21,637 bases of DNA from Candidatus Asgardarchaeum abyssi (lineage in GTDB: Archaea; Asgardarchaeota; Asgardarchaeia; Asgardarchaeales; Asgardarchaeaceae), in the NCBI GenBank assembly GCA_040225955.1, contig JBECUL010000037.1, forward strand, positions 1-21,637, written 5' to 3'. The notes beneath the pieces are model-generated. The model saw only the letters and a list, made by a program, of their open reading frames with translations. It had not been told where the DNA came from and did no database searches. Both the position numbers and the translations under genes were made by a program. Numbering within the stretch: the stretch's first letter is position 1; every line of letters starts with the position of its first letter. Shown here piece after piece: positions 2,202 to 19,446 of this stretch.

Positions 2202-3179
2202 CTAATAGCGCTTGATATCCTTATTCAATAAATCACTATGTTTTATAAGGCTCTCCATGATTGTTGCCATCGTTGAGAGTGAAATATTTTTTGTGTTTCT
2301 AAACAAATTTTCATTATGTATTAATATCTCGAAAAACAACTTCCTAATACGCCTGCCAGAGAGTCCTTCAGTCATTTTAATAAATCTCTGTAAATACTTC
2401 TCATAATCCTTATCATTTTTCTCCATTAATCTGTTATTAAAAATGCTCTCTAAGGCACTTAAAGTGTCTTCTATAATCAACTTTCTCATTTTTTCATTCG
2501 GTAGGTCTATCCTTATCAACAAGTCAACTCTATCAACAAAAGCCTCATCAAGGGCTTTGGGATAATTTGAGGTTGTTATAAGATAAAGATTATCATTTCT
2601 TGACAATAAATCTAACTGGTTCAACGTTTCATTAATTCCTCTGAAAACATCAATTGGATTTACATCAGAAATCGCTACACCTCTACTTACGAGAAGAGAC
2701 TCTACTTCATCAACAAGTACAATAACTTGCTTATTATCATCTGCAATACTATTGAGATACGTAAATGCTAAATTAATAAATTTAGGTGTTTCTCCAAGAT
2801 ACTTAGAAAGCACACTAGGAGCACTAATCTCAAAAAATAATACCTCTCCACTATAATTTAATTCATTGTAGAGTGTTTGTGCAAAAACATTAGCTAAACC
2901 TCTTGCTAATGATGTTTTTCCAGTTCCTGGTGGGCCATATAAAAGAAGTAACCTATGAAGAGCGAGCGATAAGTCTTCGATACCTTTGTTTTTCGTTCGA
3001 AAAAGCAATTTTAAGTAATTTAAAAGTCGAGTTTTAATTTCGGGTGGAACAAAAATTTTATCCCAAAAACTATTCCAGTCATTCCTAGGCAGTTTAATTG
3101 CAATTGAAAAATAGGCTAAATATTCTGGTGGTATATCAATAGTATAATCTATAGGAAAATCGCTTTCCCTGCGACTCAT
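2202..3179 (-). CDS. Pch2/TRIP13-family AAA+ ATPase
   Basis: Walker A GPPGTGKT, Walker B VLVDEVES, NPIDVFR helix, TTSN sensor 1, AFVDRVD arginine finger, GLSGRRIRKL sensor 2 and an N-terminal LP...WD motif. The start is placed at ATG 3179 because GGTG and a TATA box (about 3195-3205) lie upstream; the track's TTG at 3248 is less likely. Confidence 0.85.
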   Translation of the reverse strand: MSRRESDFPIDYTIDIPPEYLAYFSIAIKLPRNDWNSFWDKIFVPPEIKTRLLNYLKLLFRTKNKGIEDLSLALHRLLLLYGPPGTGKTSLARGLANVFAQTLYNELNYSGEVLFFEISAPSVLSKYLGETPKFINLAFTYLNSIADDNKQVIVLVDEVESLLVSRGVAISDVNPIDVFRGINETLNQLDLLSRNDNLYLITTSNYPKALDEAFVDRVDLLIRIDLPNEKMRKLIIEDTLSALESIFNNRLMEKNDKDYEKYLQRFIKMTEGLSGRRIRKLFFEILIHNENLFRNTKNISLSTMATIMESLIKHSDLLNKDIKRY

Positions 3180-3481
3180 AGTTTGCACCATTGATTTATA
3201 TAATTTTTGTAAGACATTAAAAAAGTAATTAATAAATTTTCCTTCCAAAATGTAACTTTATAATTAGGTGCAAAATTAACCTTTTTTGCAAATCTTGGTA
3301 CTAATCAGATTCACACGATAGTTTGAAAACAAGATATCCCTTAGAGTATCGATAATCTCCATTAACATCATTTTAGAATAAATAAAAAACTATACCAACC
3401 TAATTGCAATATATAACTTACTATTTCCTCCAGCAAACTTTCAAGTACGCGAGTATTAACAAATTGGGTTCGTAATTTTTA

Positions 3482-6846: not shown

Positions 6847-7668
6847 GTGGTCCACTTGGTTGATGAACGAATCGTGTTAAAAATTGGAGGATCTGTTCTC
6901 ACAGACAAAACAAAAGAAGAGCTATTGATAAAATCTGAGCTCATAGACAAAATTGCTGGTGAAATAAAATCTCTAATGGACAAAGGTTTCACATTTTGCA
7001 TAGTTCATGGAGTTGGAAGTGCTGGCCATCCCCCAGTTAAGAAATACAAATTACATTTAGGTTTCCAAAGTAAGGATCAATTAATTGGATATGCAGAAGC
7101 CCAAAATAGAGTAAATAGACTCAGACAGGAGGTTCTAGACTCCTTAGAAAGACATGGCGTTCCAGCTATCGAGTTCTATCCATCATCAATGATAATAAGT
7201 AACAAAATGATAGTAACAAAGTTTTTCTCTGAGGCTATGGAACGAATTGTTTCGACAGGTGTGGTGCCGGTTCTTTCTGGAGATATGGTTGCTGATCTTG
7301 CTATGGGGCTTTCAGTATGTTCAGGAGATATTCTTGTATTTGAGCTAGCACGAATATTTGGTTCTAAGAAGATTCTCTTTGGTGTTGATGTAGATGGTAT
7401 TTTCTCTGGTGATCCTAAGAAACAAGAAGCAAAGTTGATTGAAAACATTAACGTGGAACTATTACCTGAGTTGCTTAAAGAAGCCGGTGGTTCTTCAGGA
7501 ATTGACGTTAGTGGTGGTATGAAGGGCAAAATAAAGACCATGCTTCTGTACAAGAACTTCTTTGAAGATGGAGGAGAGGTAATAATTTTTAATTTAACAA
7601 ATCCAGAAAACCTTAGTAAGGTTTTAATGAATCCAGAGTCGGTAAAATTCACAGTTATCCGAAAATAG
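6847..7668 (+). CDS. ipk: Isopentenyl phosphate kinase (amino-acid kinase family)
   Basis: LKIGGSVLTDK, VHGVGSAGH (IPK-diagnostic His), VPVLSGD, SGD, DVDG, DVSGGMKGK. The start may be TTG 6856. Confidence 0.85.
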   Translation: MVHLVDERIVLKIGGSVLTDKTKEELLIKSELIDKIAGEIKSLMDKGFTFCIVHGVGSAGHPPVKKYKLHLGFQSKDQLIGYAEAQNRVNRLRQEVLDSLERHGVPAIEFYPSSMIISNKMIVTKFFSEAMERIVSTGVVPVLSGDMVADLAMGLSVCSGDILVFELARIFGSKKILFGVDVDGIFSGDPKKQEAKLIENINVELLPELLKEAGGSSGIDVSGGMKGKIKTMLLYKNFFEDGGEVIIFNLTNPENLSKVLMNPESVKFTVIRK

Positions 7669-7781
7669 GAGCCAATATCTTTAAATTTATTTTTATTTTT
7701 TATAAAATCCGCTTAAAGAATCTTTTTATATTACTTGATTTCAAATCACATTATCATCTATTTATATAAGGTGGTCTGCTG

Positions 7782-8549
7782 ATGAATAATCCAATACCAT
7801 TCCTGCCTGTCTTTGTATGGAACATGATAGCGGGCATAGTCTTTCCACTTGTTTACATATTCTTTGTCATAGGCCTCATGGGAAAACTTGTTGAGAAGGG
7901 TTTTCCTCAGGATCTATCAAGAAAAGTAATTCACATTGCTGCTGGTAGCTGGATATGGGTATGGCCTTTAATAGATCCCTCCGATGGATGGTCGTACATA
8001 TTTAACATAGCTGTTGCAGCCCTCTGGACTCTATTATTCATAAATAAAGGTTTAAAAGGAACGCCCGATGACACTGCTGTTAAAACCATGACACGAACTG
8101 GTAATCCAAAAGAGCTTCTACTTGGGCCACTATTCTTTACACTCTCAATGGAATATATTGGAATACTGCACTTTATGACATACATTGGTGTCGTAGTTAT
8201 GGGATATCTTGGTTGGGGCGATGGACTTGCGCCATATATAGGTGCAAGATACGGAAAGCATAAATACAAATTATTAGGCAGAGAGAAATCAATTGAGGGC
8301 AGTATAACTGTATTCCTTGCTGGATTCTTAGGAGCCTTGCTATTGTATGTCTTAGTATTCTACAGTTTTCCAACAATTGAGATGCTTATGTGGATGATAA
8401 TACTCGGTATTATTGCCACCATAGTTGAGGCAGTAAGTCCATCTGATGTAGATAACCTGCTAATTCCCGCTGTGTTATTAATCATAGCCTACATAATATC
8501 TGTTACCACTGGAATTTCTCTTTTCGAAACGGTAATCCCTCATTTCTAA
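7782..8549 (+). CDS. Phytol/farnesol/dolichol kinase-like integral membrane kinase (cytidylyltransferase family)
   Basis: Multiple transmembrane helices and SRKVIHIAAG, GWGDGLAPYIG, KSIEGS, DNLLIP motifs. Confidence 0.85.
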   Translation: MNNPIPFLPVFVWNMIAGIVFPLVYIFFVIGLMGKLVEKGFPQDLSRKVIHIAAGSWIWVWPLIDPSDGWSYIFNIAVAALWTLLFINKGLKGTPDDTAVKTMTRTGNPKELLLGPLFFTLSMEYIGILHFMTYIGVVVMGYLGWGDGLAPYIGARYGKHKYKLLGREKSIEGSITVFLAGFLGALLLYVLVFYSFPTIEMLMWMIILGIIATIVEAVSPSDVDNLLIPAVLLIIAYIISVTTGISLFETVIPHF

Positions 8550-8625: not shown

Positions 8626-9894
8626 TTGATGCTAATGATAATCCATCCATCTAAAAAGTTAATAGGAATGAAAAGTAGCCTTTTAAAAGGGAAAAGAATA
8701 ATTCTGGGTATCACTGGAAGCGTGGCTGCTATAAAAGCACCAGATATCGCACGCGAGCTAATGAGACACGGTGCTGAAGTCTTTACTGTGATGTCTGAAA
8801 TGGCTAAAAAAATTATTCATCCATATACGATGGAATGGGCTACGGGGAATCCCGTGATAACCGAGCTTACGGGAAAAATAGAACACGTGTCACTTGTAGG
8901 CGAAGAAGAACATATATCAGATGTTTATCTGATAGCTCCTGCAACTGCTAATACTATAAGTAAAATTGCAAATGGTATAGATGATACACCAGTTACAAGT
9001 GTGGCTACAGTAGCTCTTGGCTTAAAAATTCCTATAGTGGTTGTGCCAGCAATGCATGATGCCATGTATAATAATCCATTTGTAAAAGAGTCTATTGAAA
9101 AATTAAAGAGACTTGGTATATATTTTGTTGATCCATTGATCGAAGAGGGGAAAGCAAAGATCGCACCTCTTGAAGAAATAGTTCTTGAAGTTATGCGAGC
9201 TGCGTGTGATAAAAAGGATTTGATTAATTGTAACGTACTAGTAACTGGTGGTCCAACGCGAGAGTTTTTAGATCCAATTCGCTTTATTTCCAATCCAAGT
9301 AGTGGTAAAATGGGTTTGGCTATAGCCGAATCCGCATATATACGAGGAGCTAATGTCTATCTTGTTATGGGTCCTAACAATCTTTATATTCCGCGACAAA
9401 TAAATTGTGTATCTGTTACCTCTGCTCAAGAGATGTTTGATACTGTTTTTAAAATACTTAATAGGAGTAAAGCTGATATATTTATCAGCGCTGCTGCTGT
9501 TGCGGATTATACTCCAGAAAAGAGAGAGACTGCCAAAATACGTTCCGATAAAGAGAAACTCCAAGTAATTCTTAAGAAGACACAAAAGATAGTAAAAGAA
9601 GTCAAACGTAAATACTCAGATATTCTCGTTGTGGGATTTAAAGCAGAGTCAAATATGACGGATGAGGCGCTAATAAGAATAGCAAAGGAGAAAATTAATG
9701 AATACAATATAGATGCTGTTGTCGCAAATGATATAAGCAGGCAAGCATCTGGTTTCGGAAAGGACTATAACGAGGTAATAGTTGTTACAAAATCGGGATA
9801 CTATGAGAAAATAGGACCGAAGATAAAAATAGAAATAGCTGATAGAATATTTGATATTTTGAAAAGGGAGATGGCATCGAAAGATGAATCCTAA
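8626..9894 (+). CDS. coaBC: Bifunctional phosphopantothenoylcysteine decarboxylase / phosphopantothenate-cysteine ligase
   Basis: [68 protein letters not shown]. Confidence 0.96.
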
Positions 9895-10426
9895 AAAGCT
9901 AAGATTTCGAATTAAACTCTGGATTGAGCAAAACGGAGCAGACATATTAGGCGAAGGAGGGGCAGAGCTTTTAAAAGCGATACAAGAAACTGGGTCTATC
10001 GCCAAAGCAGCTGAGAAGATAGGAGTTTCTTATAAGTTTGCGTGGGCTTATATTAAGAAAATTGAAAAAAACCTTGGAGAGAAAATAGTTATTACTCATA
10101 AGGGCGGCGTTAAAAGGGGATGGGCAAAGTTAACAGAAGCTGGTGAGCAATTGCTTCAAATATATAACTTAGCATATTCTGAAATGAGAAACTGTTTAAC
10201 ATCCATTGAAACACCGTTGTCATTTGGTATTGTGAAAAATAATATAACAATAAAAATAAAGGAAATTCGAGAAGGGGAAGAGACATCAATAATAATTGGT
10301 ACTATTCAGAAAAATACAGCTTTAACCGCAGTAATAACGACTGAAGCTTTAGAAAGTCTCAATCTTAAGAAAGGTCTTCCATGTAAATTCTTAATAAAGG
10401 CGACAGCAATAAATGTGAGGTTATAA
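9884..10426 (+). CDS. modE: ModE-family molybdate/tungstate-responsive regulator (wHTH plus one TOBE domain)
   Basis: LLKAIQETGSIAKAAEKIGVSYKFAW, GG...G.A.LT and C-terminal TOBE VITTEALESLNL...IKA. Overlaps coaBC by 11 nt. Confidence 0.85.
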   Translation: MNPKKLRFRIKLWIEQNGADILGEGGAELLKAIQETGSIAKAAEKIGVSYKFAWAYIKKIEKNLGEKIVITHKGGVKRGWAKLTEAGEQLLQIYNLAYSEMRNCLTSIETPLSFGIVKNNITIKIKEIREGEETSIIIGTIQKNTALTAVITTEALESLNLKKGLPCKFLIKATAINVRL

Positions 10427-10428
10427 TA

Positions 10429-10638
10429 ATGGCCATAAGTGTAAGAAATATACTAGAGGGTAATGTTAAACGAATAAAGAAAGGAGACATACTTGTAGAG
10501 GTCACACTTGTTATTACAAAGGATCAAGAAATTAAAATTGTGGTTCCTAATAAAATTGTAAGAGAAATACGTCAAAAAAATCTAGAAGAGTTAGTAGTTG
10601 AAATTGATTCCCGTGCAATCGCGGTTCTAAGAGAATAA
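10429..10638 (+). CDS. Stand-alone Mop/TOBE-domain protein
   Basis: 69 aa beginning ISVRNILEGNVKRIKKG, matching the molbindin SARN.L.G.V..I pattern. Confidence 0.8.
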   Translation: MAISVRNILEGNVKRIKKGDILVEVTLVITKDQEIKIVVPNKIVREIRQKNLEELVVEIDSRAIAVLRE

Positions 10639-10772
10639 TACATGGATTGATTTTTGTTACAGCCCATCTCTATTTCTGAAAATTCTGAAACTTTACTCTG
10701 GAATAACAATATGTGTTTTTTGTAAAGAAATTTTTCCAAAAAAGCTTATAATTCTCTTCCTCACTCATATAT

Positions 10773-11377
10773 ATGGTGTCAATAATGCATTTATCTGAGG
10801 TGTTATCAGAGGAGGATCTATCACGGATTTTTGATATATTAAAGCATCCACTGCGGCGAGAAATTATCAGACAGCTATCTAATAAGCCTCAAACATACAC
10901 TCAAATCTTAAAGAAGCTTAATGTTAAAGAAAGCAGTTTTCTAAATTATCATCTAAGAAAAATGGAAAGCCTGCTTATTAGGAAGAGTAATGGAAAATAC
11001 GAATTAAATGAAATAGGTGCAATTTGTAGTCAACTTGTGCTTAGAGTTAAAGAGAATGTGAATATTAGTAGATTTAAGAATCTTCAACAAATGGTAATGC
11101 ACTTAAGATTAACTATGAATACGCTTCAGATAGTGTTTTTTCGCTTATAATTATTCTAGTTACGGAGCTTTGTGTAATAGATGTCATTAGTATATCATCC
11201 ATTATTAAAATCATCACATCTGGTATAGCTTTTAGTCTTGTTCTCATCTTTTTTCTTAGGAGAAAATATAACAAAAGTTATATGGACTACCAAAACAAAA
11301 GAGAGAGTATTTTTGGCATGCTAAGCCTTACGCTTACAATATGGATTTTAGTACAAATAATATTTGAATTGTTATAA
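10773..11377 (+). pseudogene. ArsR-type wHTH regulator with a C-terminal three-helix membrane domain, frameshifted at a T6 tract
   Basis: The HTH ORF 10773-11150 (IFDILKHPLRREII, LNYHLRKM, GKYELN) stops 9 nt after T6 at 11136-11141. The -1 frame is open for 78 codons to TAA 11375-11377 and is hydrophobic. Confidence 0.65.
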
Positions 11378-11487
11378 TAATTCCAGCTATTGTATAAAAA
11401 ATTAAAATTCTAATGTGCTACGAGGAACTTAAAATAGTAACTGAGGGAGAAACTTATCCTTCTTATTCAAAGAATAAAGAAAATAAA

Positions 11488-12435
11488 TTAATAAGTCTTT
11501 AAATATGTAGCTTCAAATCCTTTAATCAATTTAGTTAACGTATCATTAACTGGTGCTGCAAGATTATTTAAAATCGCTTGATAAACAATGGCTCCATTAA
11601 TATAATCTATCTCGGTCTTTCTCCTCTTCTCTATATCTTGCAACATAGAGCATTTGTTATTTGCTGTTTTTTGAGCTACTTCAAAAGTTTTAGAGAGAGG
11701 ATCCGATGGTAAAGTAATACCTAATTTTCGAGTTACTGCCAACCCCTCATAAATAACATTTTTCATAAGAGTCTTTAGTTCTTCATGTTCTAAAAGTTGC
11801 CCATTTTTGAGTCCTGTTATTGCTCCAATAGGGTTAATTGCTGCATTTATAAGGAGTTTTAACCAAACGTAGCTTCTTATATTATTCACTATTTTTGCAC
11901 TCATTTTAGTTTCTTCTTCCAATTTTTCTGCTATTTCTTTGATGATTCCCATTGAGGGTGCTCTAACTGGGCCGAAAATCAAGTCACCAAGTCCTGTATG
12001 TTCAACAACTCCTGGCTCTCTTAACATAGCAGCATGTGATATTACTCCTCGTATTAACAAAGCATCTCTTATAATGGCTCTAATTATATCCTCCAACCCT
12101 AATCCATTTTGTAAGGTTACAATATATTCATCCCCATTTACTATCTTATTTATTTCTTGGCTTGCAGTCTTTGTATCATAGGCTTTAACAGTTATAAAAA
12201 TCACATCAAAAGAAGGTTCATTTATTTCATCTACAGAAGTAAATGCGTCTATCTTAATAGTAAAATTTTCTAACGGTGAAATTACTCTAAGTCCATTTTC
12301 ATTTATAGCTCTCACATGTTTCTCTCTGCCAATAAGAATAACATCAAACCCTGCTTTCTTTAAGAAACCTCCTATTAGACTTCCAATTGCACCAGCACCG
12401 AAAATCAAAAGCCTTAAACTCATACTTTCCATCAC
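11488..12435 (-). CDS. panE: 2-dehydropantoate 2-reductase
   Basis: GAGAIG, VKAYD, LQNGLG, WLKLLINAAINP, SMLQD...TEIDYING. The start is probably ATG 12423. Confidence 0.95.
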   Translation of the reverse strand: MMESMSLRLLIFGAGAIGSLIGGFLKKAGFDVILIGREKHVRAINENGLRVISPLENFTIKIDAFTSVDEINEPSFDVIFITVKAYDTKTASQEINKIVNGDEYIVTLQNGLGLEDIIRAIIRDALLIRGVISHAAMLREPGVVEHTGLGDLIFGPVRAPSMGIIKEIAEKLEEETKMSAKIVNNIRSYVWLKLLINAAINPIGAITGLKNGQLLEHEELKTLMKNVIYEGLAVTRKLGITLPSDPLSKTFEVAQKTANNKCSMLQDIEKRRKTEIDYINGAIVYQAILNNLAAPVNDTLTKLIKGFEATYLKTY

Positions 12436-13227
12436 CTAATAGTTAAAAACCTCATCTATTATTATTCCCTTTTTTGACAGATTATCAAGTCTATTCTTAA
12501 TATATGCCAATACAGATTTTAAAATTTCCTTATTGTCATACTTCTCTTTTATATTCCTTAATTCACTCTTGGACATATTCTTAAACTCTTTACTATACTT
12601 AATTAACAAAGGCATGCATCTAACAATATTATCAACAATAGTTATATTTGCCCATTGCGCGGTTCTACTTAGTGGGTTCAAGTCGACAGCAATAACTGTC
12701 TTTCCAAGCTTTCTCAAAGCTTCAGTTCGATCTCCATCTTCTAAAGGTACAAAAACAACATCAGCTTTGTATATACCACGTACATCAACGATTCTACGCA
12801 TACTTGAAATTTCTGGTATTTTTGTCCAAAATTTTTCATCAACACCTAAAACATCTCTCGCACCACGTTCAATTAATTCTTTCTTAATAGCCTCTAATCT
12901 GCCTGGCTCTCTGTAAAATATATTAACTTCTATTTTTGCATTGGTAACCTCTGCCAACTCTATAACTTCTTTCGCAACAAGTGCTGCAACATTTCCATTT
13001 ACACTTATAACTGGATGTTCTGCGAGCAAAAACGTTGCAGCTGCAGCTTTTATAGCCTCCTCTGCTGGTGGAATTGTTTTTTCCCCTAGTAAATAATCAA
13101 AAGCCTCTCCTCTTCCATGTGCTATAAGTCCACTTTCAGTAACCACTTTTTTCTTTAATCCTTCAACTAATCGATGTCTAATCTTTAGAGACCATGCTCT
13201 AGGATGAGAATCTGGTATTTCACTCAT
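12436..13227 (-). CDS. Archaeal 4-phosphopantoate--beta-alanine ligase (phosphopantothenate synthetase, COG1701)
   Basis: IP.SHPR..SL..R, GLIAHGRGEAFDYLLGE, PVISVNGN, VPLEDGDRTEAL, DLNPLSRT. Confidence 0.96.
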   Translation of the reverse strand: MSEIPDSHPRAWSLKIRHRLVEGLKKKVVTESGLIAHGRGEAFDYLLGEKTIPPAEEAIKAAAATFLLAEHPVISVNGNVAALVAKEVIELAEVTNAKIEVNIFYREPGRLEAIKKELIERGARDVLGVDEKFWTKIPEISSMRRIVDVRGIYKADVVFVPLEDGDRTEALRKLGKTVIAVDLNPLSRTAQWANITIVDNIVRCMPLLIKYSKEFKNMSKSELRNIKEKYDNKEILKSVLAYIKNRLDNLSKKGIIIDEVFNY

Positions 13228-14110: not shown

Positions 14111-14902
14111 ATGGCTTCTGAGCTTGTAGAGGAAAGACTAAAGGATATGCTGTTAAAGAAACAATTTAATGAACTTTCTAATCTTCTTCTAAGAAAATAT
14201 CCAAACAAAATAGACATGGTAATAAAATTCTTGAAAGATAAAAATCCAATGATAAGAGGGAATGCAGCTCTTCTAATAGGCCTTATTGGAGAGAAGAATC
14301 CTGATATTGTTTCAAAGGCAATTCCAGTCTTAGTTAAAATTATGAAGAAAGATAATGTTGCTGTTAAAACATCTGTTGTTATAGCATTAGGTCGTATTGG
14401 GAAGGGGAAAATAACTTTAGTTAGTCCAATAGTCCCAGAAATTATAAAATTTCTAAAACATAAATCCCCCGCTATGAAACAAAGTGCTATTGTTGCTCTA
14501 AGTCATATTGGTAGCATTTATCCTGGGGTTGTAAAAAAGGCAGTTCCTATGATAATTGCTATGCTAGATGATCCCGATCCCACGATTCGCGAAAAAGCAA
14601 TAATGGCAATAGGACTTATTGGAAGTGCTAACATACATATGGTTAAAGAAGCAATTCCAATTTTAATTGATCTTCTATCAGATGAGGATTCGTTGGTAAG
14701 ACGAGCAGCTGCTGAAACCTTAGGAATACTCTCAGAGCAGCATCCTGAGGGTGTAAGAACAGCAATCGTAAAGCTACTAAAACTACAAGCACAAGGGGAA
14801 ATATGGTATGTTAAAGAAATGGCTCGTGACGTACTGCAAGATTTATGCTCTAAGCTAGGAATCGATATAAGACTTATAGCAAAAGAAAAACAAGTCTTAT
14901 AA
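14111..14902 (+). CDS. HEAT-repeat protein
   Basis: About five 37-38 aa repeats of the form AIP.L..LL.D.D..VR..A..ALG.IG. Confidence 0.92.
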   Translation: MASELVEERLKDMLLKKQFNELSNLLLRKYPNKIDMVIKFLKDKNPMIRGNAALLIGLIGEKNPDIVSKAIPVLVKIMKKDNVAVKTSVVIALGRIGKGKITLVSPIVPEIIKFLKHKSPAMKQSAIVALSHIGSIYPGVVKKAVPMIIAMLDDPDPTIREKAIMAIGLIGSANIHMVKEAIPILIDLLSDEDSLVRRAAAETLGILSEQHPEGVRTAIVKLLKLQAQGEIWYVKEMARDVLQDLCSKLGIDIRLIAKEKQVL

Positions 14903-16369
14903 TCAGGTAAACAGAGCCAAGAATTGAGAAACAGAGCAGGTATCTCCTAACCCAACAGTTTTTAAGGGATTTTCAACAAACTTTATAGGTATTGCGATTA
15001 ATGAAAAATTATCTGTTTCTATAAATCCATCTTCAAGTAAATTTCCATCTGTAGCTGAATGTTTTTCTCTTATTAATTTATCTAAATAGTTCATAGTCTT
15101 AAATGCACGCTCTTGATAGTAAAAGGCATTCTTATTCTCTAGCATGTTTCTAATTTCCATTAGTGAAGGTTCTTTTCCCAAAATCGCTCTTACGGAAGTT
15201 ACCAATGAACCGAATAATGTAGCATTTAAGAATTTCTCAATTTTCATATCTCTGTTATTCGTTACTGGAGGAGTTATAAAGAATGTGGTATCGAAAGTGT
15301 GTAAATGAATTGATACGTTTATGTTTGATAAAATTTTAAGAAAACCAGTTAAAAGCTTTTTACATCTTTCCTCTATAGATATGTTAGTACTTTCCTTTGT
15401 ACCAAAAAAATAAATATAAAACTCATTTTCATTTAAGCTAATTATATCAACATGGGGTAAAATTGATTGTTTTATCTGACTAATGATATAATCATCAGCA
15501 GTTATTCCAAGCTCATATTTAATGAGGAGATTTCGGTTCGCTTCTTTGATTGCTTTAATGAAATTTATTGTTTCATTCATTCTCTCATCAATAAACTTCT
15601 TACCCAGTGAGGAATCGATCAAGTGATGACCTGCGATAATTCCTCCATGGAAATCTTTTGCATGAATCACAAGATATTCTTTAAGATGCTTGTCTATTGT
15701 AAGCATTGAATTTATTGGATCATATGTGGCGATAAACCTAGTACTATTTGGAACAATGAATGTTTTTCCATGAATTGCAGCAGAAAAGCCTTTTTTAAAT
15801 TCAAAAATCCAATGAATTAGCTCCTCCTTTTCAGTAGCTATTATATATGGAGAAAATAGCTTAATGCCTCCTCCAGAACTTCTAGCAACAAATATCTCTT
15901 TAAAGAGTAGCGATGCTAAAGTTTTGGTCATAACTGGCGCGTTTATGAGTATATTTTTTATACCTAGAACACTAGCGGTATTTGCCATAATTCCTGCTTG
16001 TCCACCTATTGAGAGTAGATCATACTGAACATTCTTATTTATCCAATGATATACATTCTCATCTACAATTTTCCACTCTTCTCCGATACCATGTTCCATA
16101 CAATAAGTAAGACCGATAAGTAAATCATCTAAATTCTTTATCTTTTTCTCTCTGAGTCTTTTTCTTTCTATTTTATTTATTTTTGTATTTTTTTCTAAAA
16201 GTTTTAAGAGCGAAGCATCTACCTCTCTTATGGCATCAACATTTATATTAAAACCAAAAAAGAAGTTTTTTAAGAAGAGAAACCTTGAGCTTACTGAATC
16301 GTATGCCGACCTATATTTTTCATCCCAAATTTTAATTAATTCCGTTATAGTTTTTTTAGTCATTTTCAA
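14903..16369 (-). CDS. ADP-dependent glucokinase/phosphofructokinase family protein, probably glucokinase-type
   Basis: GFNINVDAI, GGQAGIMAN, IHWIFEF, RFI, NENE (NxxE), HLHT, TVGLGDT with the catalytic Asp. The start is TTG 16369 or ATG 16363. Confidence 0.9.
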   Translation of the reverse strand: MKMTKKTITELIKIWDEKYRSAYDSVSSRFLFLKNFFFGFNINVDAIREVDASLLKLLEKNTKINKIERKRLREKKIKNLDDLLIGLTYCMEHGIGEEWKIVDENVYHWINKNVQYDLLSIGGQAGIMANTASVLGIKNILINAPVMTKTLASLLFKEIFVARSSGGGIKLFSPYIIATEKEELIHWIFEFKKGFSAAIHGKTFIVPNSTRFIATYDPINSMLTIDKHLKEYLVIHAKDFHGGIIAGHHLIDSSLGKKFIDERMNETINFIKAIKEANRNLLIKYELGITADDYIISQIKQSILPHVDIISLNENEFYIYFFGTKESTNISIEERCKKLLTGFLKILSNINVSIHLHTFDTTFFITPPVTNNRDMKIEKFLNATLFGSLVTSVRAILGKEPSLMEIRNMLENKNAFYYQERAFKTMNYLDKLIREKHSATDGNLLEDGFIETDNFSLIAIPIKFVENPLKTVGLGDTCSVSQFLALFT

Positions 16370-17718
16370 TCCTCAAAAGGTATTTCTATTTCCATATTTT
16401 CCTCTCTGTCAGTCAGCTGATTGTAATATTTCATTGAAATTGTTATTAATGTTCCTGGACTTACCCCCCTTATTTCTATATCAAATGAAACCTCTTCACG
16501 CTCTTTTATTTTCTCTAGGTTAAATTCGTTCGGCTCTATGGCTAAAACTGGTGAAAGTTTTATCGAAATATCAGATAATACAATTTTACTTATATTCTTG
16601 AGTAAGAGTAAATATTTGTTTTCTTGCCTTTTTATCACAAAAGCTTCAAATTTTGGTGTTTGCATTCTTTCTATATCTTTTTCAATAATTTTGATCAATG
16701 CAGGAACTCTTGGATATTTATCAGTGCGCATGACTTCTTTTATTTTTTCAAGCCGTTGATATATGTAATCGCAATCAATTCCAAAATTCTTAATTTTTTT
16801 CAGCTCCATATCGATTTTTCTAATCTTCTCCTCAACAGCCTCATTGAATTTATATCTTGTATTAACAAGTACTGAAAGAGAATCCAAAGCGTTTTTCGCA
16901 GCGTTATATTTTTTTGAGTCGATAAGTGAATTTATTCTCTCCGCAACTCTAATCGCATCATCCATATATATGTATTCTTTAAGGTCATTTAGTGCGCTTT
17001 TTAAACTCTCAAACCGATCAAAAATTTGTTTATAATCATTAATTACGTTGATAGCTCTATTTTTTATATCAGAATACTTAGTCTGCACTTCTTTAAATGT
17101 ATACTTCTCAAAATTATTGCGAAGAGCATTTATTTCCTCAAAGAAAGGTTCAACATTTACTTTGTTTTTATAAATCTCTAGTATCTCTAGGAATTCATCG
17201 ATATCCCCGACAATGTCTAACCATTCAGAATAATTAGAAAGTAGAGAAAAATACATCTCCTGACATTTTTTAAAGTTTTTATCAGATATATTCATAACTT
17301 TTATAGACTTTAGTTTTCTCCTTAAATCTGCAGGAATTGGGGTAGGTGAGCTCTCAATTCTTCTAATCAATATTGTAACTCTTTTCCTTAGTTGGTTAAT
17401 AATTCTTCCTTCCAGCGATGATGTGATCTCTTTAAGAGAGGCCTCTCTTGCTCTTTTTAGAGTCTCTAAGATATCGTTATATTTCTTTATTATAGCGAAA
17501 TCTTGCTCTATACCGTATCCTAATAAGTCTATAATCTTACTAATATAGTGTGTATTCTTGTTCTTAGAAAAATCGATTAACTTTTGTTTTATTAAATTTA
17601 ATATCTCGTCATCTCTCAAAGCATCTACGATATAACTAGGGGTCTCATTATAAATTTTATTAATTTCTTCAAAATCATCGGATTGAAGAGCGTGCCTTAT
17701 TATGTCTAGGCCAGACAA
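16366..17718 (-). CDS. Hypothetical protein: long helical/coiled-coil region plus C-terminal Ig-like beta-sandwich
   Basis: 450 aa, TTG start with GAGGG upstream. About 350 aa are charged and helical, then LLLLKNISKIVLSDISIKL...F.LEKI...EEVSFDIEI...ITISMKY suggests beta strands. Confidence 0.75.
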   Translation of the reverse strand: MSGLDIIRHALQSDDFEEINKIYNETPSYIVDALRDDEILNLIKQKLIDFSKNKNTHYISKIIDLLGYGIEQDFAIIKKYNDILETLKRAREASLKEITSSLEGRIINQLRKRVTILIRRIESSPTPIPADLRRKLKSIKVMNISDKNFKKCQEMYFSLLSNYSEWLDIVGDIDEFLEILEIYKNKVNVEPFFEEINALRNNFEKYTFKEVQTKYSDIKNRAINVINDYKQIFDRFESLKSALNDLKEYIYMDDAIRVAERINSLIDSKKYNAAKNALDSLSVLVNTRYKFNEAVEEKIRKIDMELKKIKNFGIDCDYIYQRLEKIKEVMRTDKYPRVPALIKIIEKDIERMQTPKFEAFVIKRQENKYLLLLKNISKIVLSDISIKLSPVLAIEPNEFNLEKIKEREEVSFDIEIRGVSPGTLITISMKYYNQLTDREENMEIEIPFED

Positions 17719-17913: not shown

Positions 17914-18633
17914 TTATTCCTTTGTTAGTCTTATCATATAATCTACCACATACTCTTCAAGTAGATCATCAAAGGATTCCGGTTTATCTTCTTGTATCTT
18001 ATAAACATCAATACTTATTTCTTTATCCTTCTTTTTTATGTCATCAACTATATTATTAATGTCATCATCATCAATAATATTCATGTTTGGATCTTTTGAC
18101 AGTATCCCAATTAAAGAGAACTCATTGCAGTACTTCCTTGCTTCATTTATGAATTTTATTGCACTCTTGAGAGATGCAGGTTCTGAATATCTGAAGAATA
18201 CTATAACTCGCTGTGCACCATAATAAAACTTTGGCCGGATATGATGAAATCTATCATTTCCGTTAAGATGAAAAACTTGTAAAATTACCAAATATGTAGT
18301 TCTATCCTTCTCAAGAAGCAGCCTCGGGAGATAAAAATCAACCCCTATAAATAACAAATCCTGGAAACCCTTCTTAACGGAATCAAAATATTTACTCCTA
18401 TTAACTAGCTTTCGTACATCTTCTAATCTATCACCAATTAAAATAAACTTCAGATAAACAAGTCCTTTTTCTTTTATACTTTCTATGGGTTCTTCAGGAG
18501 GTATTCTTATTTTTATATCGAATGGATATTTTTTAGAGGCATCCTTATCACCTTTCGAATATCTCAAACTATGCACAAAAGTAGTACCAAGACATTCCTT
18601 GTAATTCTCCTTACTTTGTTCATCTCTTCTCAT
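17914..18633 (-). CDS. Rab-like small GTPase homologue with degenerate nucleotide-binding motifs
   Basis: LKFILIGD, IGVDF, ILQVFHLNGNDRFHHIRPKFYYGA, VIVFF...PASL follow the Rab G-domain order. There is no GKT/S, DxxG or NKxD. Confidence 0.75.
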   Translation of the reverse strand: MRRDEQSKENYKECLGTTFVHSLRYSKGDKDASKKYPFDIKIRIPPEEPIESIKEKGLVYLKFILIGDRLEDVRKLVNRSKYFDSVKKGFQDLLFIGVDFYLPRLLLEKDRTTYLVILQVFHLNGNDRFHHIRPKFYYGAQRVIVFFRYSEPASLKSAIKFINEARKYCNEFSLIGILSKDPNMNIIDDDDINNIVDDIKKKDKEISIDVYKIQEDKPESFDDLLEEYVVDYMIRLTKE

Positions 18634-18879: not shown

Positions 18880-19446
18880 TCATTCAATGGGTTTTTTAAT
18901 TTCATATGGTTTCCATCCATGTCTTTGGCGAAAGTCATTAATAAGTTTAATCGCTTTTTCTTTTTCTTCCTTAGGCATCTTTTTACTTCTCAAGACACCC
19001 ATAAATAAAACGTATGTTCTCGCTTGTATGGTTCTTGGTGAAATCTCATGCTTTAAATCCTCCTCCATCTCATCAAGGATCGCCTTCACTTCCTCAGCAT
19101 GGCTTAATCCTTTCGCCCCTATGTCACGCACTTGCCATCCTAAGTATAAGTGACCCTTGTTAACGACGATAAATTTACCATCTTCATAAGTTATTCTTCC
19201 TTTGGTAATTCTATCATAAAACTCCCAGTTGTCTGCCCACTCTGGGTTTCTTTTTCTTAATTCCTTAAGCACAAATCTTCTAATTTCAGTGGTTCTCATC
19301 CCATCTGTGACCTTCTTCTCAATCTCATCTGCTATTTCGTGAGCATCCTTTTCTGTTGCTCCTGCATTCATACAGCTTCTGACTATTTTCTCTTTATCAA
19401 AATCTTCCTCTCTACCATCTACTTTTATAACTCTAATTTTCGCCAT
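18880..19446 (-). CDS. ATP-cone domain protein with unknown C-terminal domain
   Basis: VIKVDGREEDFDKEKIVRSC..AGA...TTEIR..V...L is an ATP cone. GAGGTGG ribosome-binding site upstream. Confidence 0.85.
   Translation of the reverse strand: MAKIRVIKVDGREEDFDKEKIVRSCMNAGATEKDAHEIADEIEKKVTDGMRTTEIRRFVLKELRKRNPEWADNWEFYDRITKGRITYEDGKFIVVNKGHLYLGWQVRDIGAKGLSHAEEVKAILDEMEEDLKHEISPRTIQARTYVLFMGVLRSKKMPKEEKEKAIKLINDFRQRHGWKPYEIKKPIE

Follow-up and report, generated by a model that had tools for sequence, protein, structure and literature searches.

The window, as we call the whole 21,637-nucleotide stretch of DNA analysed here, carries on its minus strand an open reading frame that a preliminary description had read as a Rab-like pseudoGTPase with the Rab family motifs kept and the nucleotide-binding motifs lost. 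Its product (hereafter the window protein) is 53% identical to its syntenic orthologue P0003, the nearest of its distant homologues, which is annotated as hypothetical in a genome of Candidatus Asgardarchaeia. The window's genome probably belongs to Asgardarchaeia too. The parts of the gene, with identities to P0003, and its two syntenic neighbours are as follows.

18880..19446, minus strand: stand-alone ATP-cone protein, the upstream syntenic neighbour
17914..18633, minus strand: Rab-like pseudoGTPase open reading frame, 239 aa, ATG at 18633, TAA at 17914, frame uninterrupted
18514..18633, minus strand: variable N-terminal tail, residues 1-40, 10/37 identical
18454..18513, minus strand: extension preceding strand β1, residues 41-60, starting KIRIPPEE, 18/20 identical
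18412..18435, minus strand: broken G1/P-loop, residues 67-74, GDRLEDVR, with Asp-Val-Arg in place of Gly-Lys-Thr
18349..18396, minus strand: rewritten switch I, residues 80-95, with Phe95 for the G2 Thr; residues 80-96 are 17/17 identical
18334..18348, minus strand: RabF1 IGVDF, residues 96-100, in strand β2; invariant, containing Phe100 of the aromatic triad
18214..18285, minus strand: RabF2-like strand, broken G3 and RabF3-/RabF4-like switch II; residues 115-140 are 20/26 identical
18091..18108, minus strand: broken G4, GILSKD, residues 176-181, Gly then Ile where Asn-Lys-x-Asp is expected
17986..18000, minus strand: G5 position, SAK motif absent, unconserved between orthologues
16366..17718, minus strand: 450-aa protein of no known family, the downstream syntenic neighbour

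Every motif quoted in the preliminary description is present in this intact frame, including ILQVF (residues 117-121), HLNG (122-125), RFHHIR (128-133) and FYYGA (136-140). Approximately three additional residues separate G1 from RabF1, and the protein ends in IRLTKE without a C-terminal cysteine, Cys14 and Cys169 being the only cysteines. In DNA contigs from four runs the frame differs by single-letter variants only, and the labels of the sequencing runs in which the stretch occurs name metagenomes of marine, sediment and hydrothermal-vent origin; we know of no cultured host for the protein. A promoter scan with a bacterial model stayed at chance level.

Both sequence and predicted structure place the window protein among the Rabs. 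Pfam Ras matches residues 96-176 with 27.8 bits (cut-off 21.6, E = 2.2e-6), and the best sequence matches in the PDB are Rab35 and Rab1 (E ~1e-5) followed by Rab18 and Rab5, while a search of NCBIfam returned no match. AlphaFold produced the small-GTPase topology from a mixed alignment (pLDDT 88, pTM 0.86) and again from the orthologues alone (pLDDT 82), both models having the six-stranded sheet and five helices of a Ras-superfamily G-domain in small-GTPase order, to which residues 41-60 add a short strand followed by a turn (the strand appears in both). Rabs are the best fold matches of either model (Z = 17.9 and 17.1 to Rab23, rmsd 2.7-2.8, 163 residues), Foldseek likewise matches the model to Rabs, and the Rab-type G-domain that had been read from the letters is thus well founded. 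Several of the top fold matches are Rabs bound to their GEFs (Fuzzy-Inturned, TRAPP, SH3BP5, Rabex-5); we rejected this ranking as proof of an empty pocket, as GDP- and GTP-bound forms tie with them within 1 Z. RabF1 is exact and RabF2-F4 are recognisable, whereas RabF5 is missing: the sequence there is VFFRYS, and Arg148 stands where 91% of canonical domains have Asp.

The window protein fails to match an active GTPase at all five motifs G1-G5. The G1 pattern GxxxxGK[S/T] is replaced by GDRLEDVR, and by GERLEDVR in P0003, so that the P-loop loss is shared by orthologues; the G2 Thr is Phe95, G3 reads HLNG(N) here and HLNA(S) in P0003 instead of DxxG(Q), [N/T]KxD of G4 is GILSKD (GIKTRD in the orthologue), and G5 adds to the losses already listed in the preliminary description. 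An alternative P-loop register via Lys75 was rejected, as the orthologue has Glu there. In a comparison with 122 canonical Asgard Rab-like domains, the window protein retains 2/14 conserved G-motif positions, 11/17 RabF positions and 7/36 others (RabF versus other, p = 0.002), the others being perhaps undercounted because the C-terminal alignment is loose.

The broken P-loop is itself conserved: 7/9 residues of β1 and the P-loop are identical with P0003, and invariant arginines and acidic residues sit within it; Arg69, Arg74, Arg79 and Lys81 are conserved nearby and could bind another anion. One would expect such conservation if the pocket had been remodelled to accept a different ligand (phosphate, a nucleotide of another kind, a metal or an anionic lipid), in which case the protein would act as a sensor and not as an empty scaffold. 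We regard this as unlikely, given that conservation between the orthologues is poor in the segments with the G4 and G5 loops (5/12 and 19/56 identical) and that both models begin helix α1 inside the P-loop, at residue 70, three after Gly67 and earlier than in a canonical P-loop.

A gene that has lost its motifs might also be a decaying copy without function, on its way to becoming a pseudogene, or an artefact of assembly. Its narrow distribution and its long branch in trees would fit such an origin: no further orthologue was found in 60 or in 300 other Asgard genomes (nine candidates per genome were scored in the larger run) or in the genome contigs searched, the 50% cluster representatives included none beyond P0002, and the metagenome contigs searched contained one near-identical copy of the gene. 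However, six sequence variants and contigs from several samples all have an intact frame, dN/dS is 0.17 against the closer copy L005, and the same broken motifs are found in P0002-P0006, P0003 included, although the window gene and the P0003 locus are separated by a dS of ~1.8 with synonymous sites near saturation. The two loci also have a common gene order (ATP-cone, pseudoGTPase, 450-aa gene, ADP-dependent kinase, HEAT protein, phosphopantothenate synthetase). Because the motifs are equally broken across this near-saturated distance, dN/dS is low and gene order is conserved, we reject decay, which we consider barely credible; the purifying selection foreseen in the preliminary description is confirmed, and neither an absent fold nor orthologues with intact motifs, which it had named as grounds for abandoning the reading, were encountered. 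The window gene is therefore a Rab-derived pseudoGTPase candidate that is real and under selection, and it has the hallmarks of class i, a G-domain fold without G-motif residues that selection maintains.

Two points concern the sequences compared. Between the window gene and L005, codons 61-106 (L005:3075-3230) carry 17 synonymous differences and one non-synonymous difference, whereas the remainder of the gene has 10 synonymous ones; this tract looks recombined (or the contig chimeric) while coding for an unchanged protein. Furthermore, the conservation profile between orthologues rests on one distant pair, because the orthologue is known from only two genus-level lineages.

Within this pair the constraint is uneven. 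Beyond the segments listed above, strand β2 is 10/10 identical, and taken together the effector lobe (the extension, β1, the broken P-loop, switch I, β2 and switch II) is 62/80 (78%) identical and the other lobe 39/99 (39%; p about 3-4e-7), whereas in the same two genomes a canonical Rab-like pair of orthologues is conserved evenly, at 59/78 (76%) and 80/107 (75%). This indicates that the effector lobe is as constrained as that of a working GTPase while the lobe with G4 and G5 has been released, in agreement with the earlier claim that the interaction surface is selectively kept. Rab effectors read an aromatic triad, which in Rab1b is Phe45, Trp62 and Tyr77; the corresponding positions in the window protein are Phe100, Phe121 and Phe136, all three of which are invariant between the orthologues. 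The sequence of switch I is new and resembles that of none of the genome's canonical Rab-likes, and in the orthologue P0002 it shows a single Lys-to-Arg change. This invariant segment is the least confident region of both monomer models, which would fit a loop that becomes ordered on a partner but could also be explained by the shallow alignment there.

The preliminary description had proposed a scaffold or a decoy, and it is the scaffold, with a dedicated partner, that these data favour. As a decoy or fixed-state mimic the protein would bind the GEFs, GAPs or effectors of canonical Rab-likes and so damp or prime their signalling. The retention of RabF1-F4 and of the aromatic triad, the approximately 16 canonical Rab-like proteins encoded in the genome, and the GEF-bound Rabs among the top fold matches all speak for this model. 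If the protein were mimicking a particular Rab, though, its effector lobe should resemble one; instead it is ≤37% identical to any canonical paralogue, whereas most of these reach 45-62% with their own best partner, and with no paralogue matched a decoy of a Rab becomes less likely. In addition, switch I is rewritten, and being both new and invariant it points to a dedicated partner more than to mimicry, RabF1 and RabF2 double as core strands, and the fold ranking ties with nucleotide-bound forms as described above. We therefore consider a decoy unlikely.

The window gene probably encodes a nucleotide-free class i pseudoGTPase, a duplicated Rab-like (RasL) GTPase kept as a constitutive protein-binding module, as judged from the sequence comparisons and the predicted structures. 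In this model a RasL small GTPase was duplicated in this Asgard lineage and the copy lost nucleotide binding. The early start of helix α1 and the acidic residues would close the phosphate site, the hydrophobic residue at the G4 Asn position would close the guanine site, and with both sites closed the protein would be unable to switch; GTP binding is accordingly predicted to be absent. The invariant face, including Phe100, Phe121, Phe136 and switch I, would dock one conserved putative partner, in the role of a fixed subunit, an adaptor or an assembly chaperone. What counts against a scaffold is that the window contains no roadblock, longin or GTPase neighbour of the gene.

The window protein is not the only degenerate Rab-like of its genome, which in addition to the canonical proteins encodes a second, fully degenerate one and a third that has lost part of its motifs.

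C45:11934-12848 (L027:4935-5849), minus strand: second degenerate Rab-like, 305 aa, with a 70-aa unassigned N-terminal domain and a Pro/Glu linker
C11:20722-21312, minus strand: Rab-like with G1 intact and G3 and G4 lost

The orthologues of the C45 protein, P0051 and P0052 (62-66%), keep its broken motifs. This family and the window protein have some features outside the motifs in common and group in mixture-model trees, with support of 100/98 and 98/92 when the motif columns are included and 92/63 when they are removed, both being long branches; a common pseudo-Rab ancestor is plausible on these sequence grounds. A complex prediction of the window protein with the C45 protein scored 0.01, which weighs neither way.

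To place these proteins among other Asgard GTPases we took a census, from Pfam Ras matches and the canonical profile, of six single-contig Asgard genomes and the window's genome; forms that have diverged beyond the reach of the profile escape it. Both G1 and G4 are absent from 7/234 Ras-like domains (two in the window's genome, one in G011, four in G258 and none in the other four genomes). The residue after the β5 Gly is Ile, Leu or Phe in all seven degenerate domains and Asn or Thr in all 187 intact ones, an observation to be read as a pattern rather than a statistic because some of the seven are related. We used the census for this purpose because the same count in 60 degenerate domains is circular, the profile having been built from such proteins. 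A large group, mostly annotated Hodarchaeales, contains every stage of motif loss beside its own canonical paralogues, with which its degenerate forms group instead of joining one pseudo-Rab clade, and a single origin of all degenerate forms is rejected (AU test, p = 0.003; eight degenerate rows, G-motif columns removed). Tentatively, and at somewhat less than even odds, Asgard archaea may repeatedly make nucleotide-free adaptors from duplicated Rab-like GTPases along one convergent route, by P-loop collapse and a hydrophobic plug at the G4 Asn, the window protein with its invariant switch I being a fixed subunit of an undescribed Asgardarchaeia complex. Scaffolding by pseudoGTPases would then have arisen not in eukaryotes alone but among their archaeal relatives too.

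Several further loci came to light in these searches. At L030, L034 and L035, which are of Hodarchaeales type, tandem genes occur together with multi-domain proteins in which degenerate Rab-like domains are combined in twos or threes. Our Rab profiles detected no G-domain in the product of C17:14481-15551 (plus strand) of the window's genome. The G011 locus L159 (85-933) encodes a degenerate Rab-like domain after an N-terminal domain of ~100 aa of no assigned family; it was rejected as an orthologue of the window gene, being absent from the top matches of the orthologue profile. At L119/L122 (G001:C1:20778-21247) a canonical Rab-like gene is broken across two frames.

The window protein has its roots in the Asgard Rab-like family (PMC4915359, PMC10933270), and the Asgard origin suggested in the preliminary description is supported. 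Members of this family (RasL), including Thor-Rab, which has been solved with GDP (PMC10933270, PMC4915359), have in common with it the fold, RabF1-F4, the lack of a C-terminal prenylation Cys and the kind of organism (PMC10933270), but they keep G1-G5, of which the window protein keeps none; it differs further in its missing RabF5 and its conserved extension at the N-terminus. Eukaryotic Rabs such as Rab35, Rab1, Rab23, Ypt32 and Rab5 are its best sequence and fold matches and have aromatic residues at the triad positions; the window protein is ~20% identical to them and lacks the G motifs and the hypervariable Cys-bearing tail. By language-model features the nearest named clusters are IFT22/RABL5 and CPLANE2/RSG1 (0.93-0.94), whose G motifs are partly non-standard; this likeness is one of features and fold only, with lower fold scores (Z ~12), and IFT22 has been solved with GTP bound (6ia7).

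Nucleotide-free G-domains are known as binding modules in AAGAB (PMC12490416) and in CENP-M and p190RhoGAP (PMC10211241). The window protein resembles AAGAB/Irc6, CENP-M and the pG1/pG2 domains of p190RhoGAP in having the fold without G motifs and in a protein-binding use that is either established or, as for the window protein, presumed (PMC12490416, PMC10211241, PMC5593906). Unlike these eukaryotic class i proteins it is archaeal, single-domain and clearly Rab-derived; the only homology seen is that of the fold, and none of them is among its top 50 fold matches. AAGAB binds through loops away from the switches (PMC12490416), whereas the constraint in the window protein lies on the switch face, and for this reason the AAGAB precedent leaves the interface unfixed.

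PseudoGTPases are described from bacteria to human, with archaea unmentioned (PMC12490416), and phylogenetic surveys label long-branch Asgard GTPases divergent and exclude them (10.1101/2024.02.28.582541). In the literature searched (archaea or Asgard with pseudoGTPase or inactive GTPase, subscription papers outside) we found no description of archaeal pseudoGTPases or pseudo-Rabs. Our results suggest that archaeal relatives of eukaryotes, too, turn dead GTPases to use as binding modules, a practice described in eukaryotes. Counts of Asgard small GTPases, from which divergent copies are usually excluded, serve as evidence for eukaryote-like signalling; such counts would mix switches with probable scaffolds, because a few percent of the domains (7/234) apparently cannot switch yet are selected. 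It is this class-level observation that is relevant to eukaryote origins, the window gene itself being lineage-restricted. The gene offers a clean test case, with one domain, motifs entirely lost and an invariant surface marking the likely partner site.

We found no functional link of the gene to its syntenic neighbours, from which it is separated by intergenic gaps of ~150-250 bp. The C-terminal part of the ATP-cone protein is 81% conserved across genera and belongs to no named family, and the 450-aa protein is 38% conserved, with weak structural matches (TM ~0.3) to CARDB/Ig-like-containing proteins; in the other genus a PALP gene is inserted ahead of the 450-aa gene. The HEAT-repeat protein (14111-14902, plus strand) is 69% conserved across genera, and its stop codon abuts that of the convergent ADP-dependent kinase gene. 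At 2202-3248 (minus strand) lies a TRIP13/Pch2-like AAA+ ATPase (E = 3e-36 to Pch2), seemingly without the eukaryotic N-terminal domain; a Pfam search of the genome, run without a positive control, found no HORMA protein. Finally, the regions 6847-8549 and 8626-13227 hold an isopentenyl phosphate kinase beside a phytol/dolichol kinase-like membrane protein, together with CoA-pathway genes (CoaBC-like, ketopantoate reductase and phosphopantothenate synthetase).
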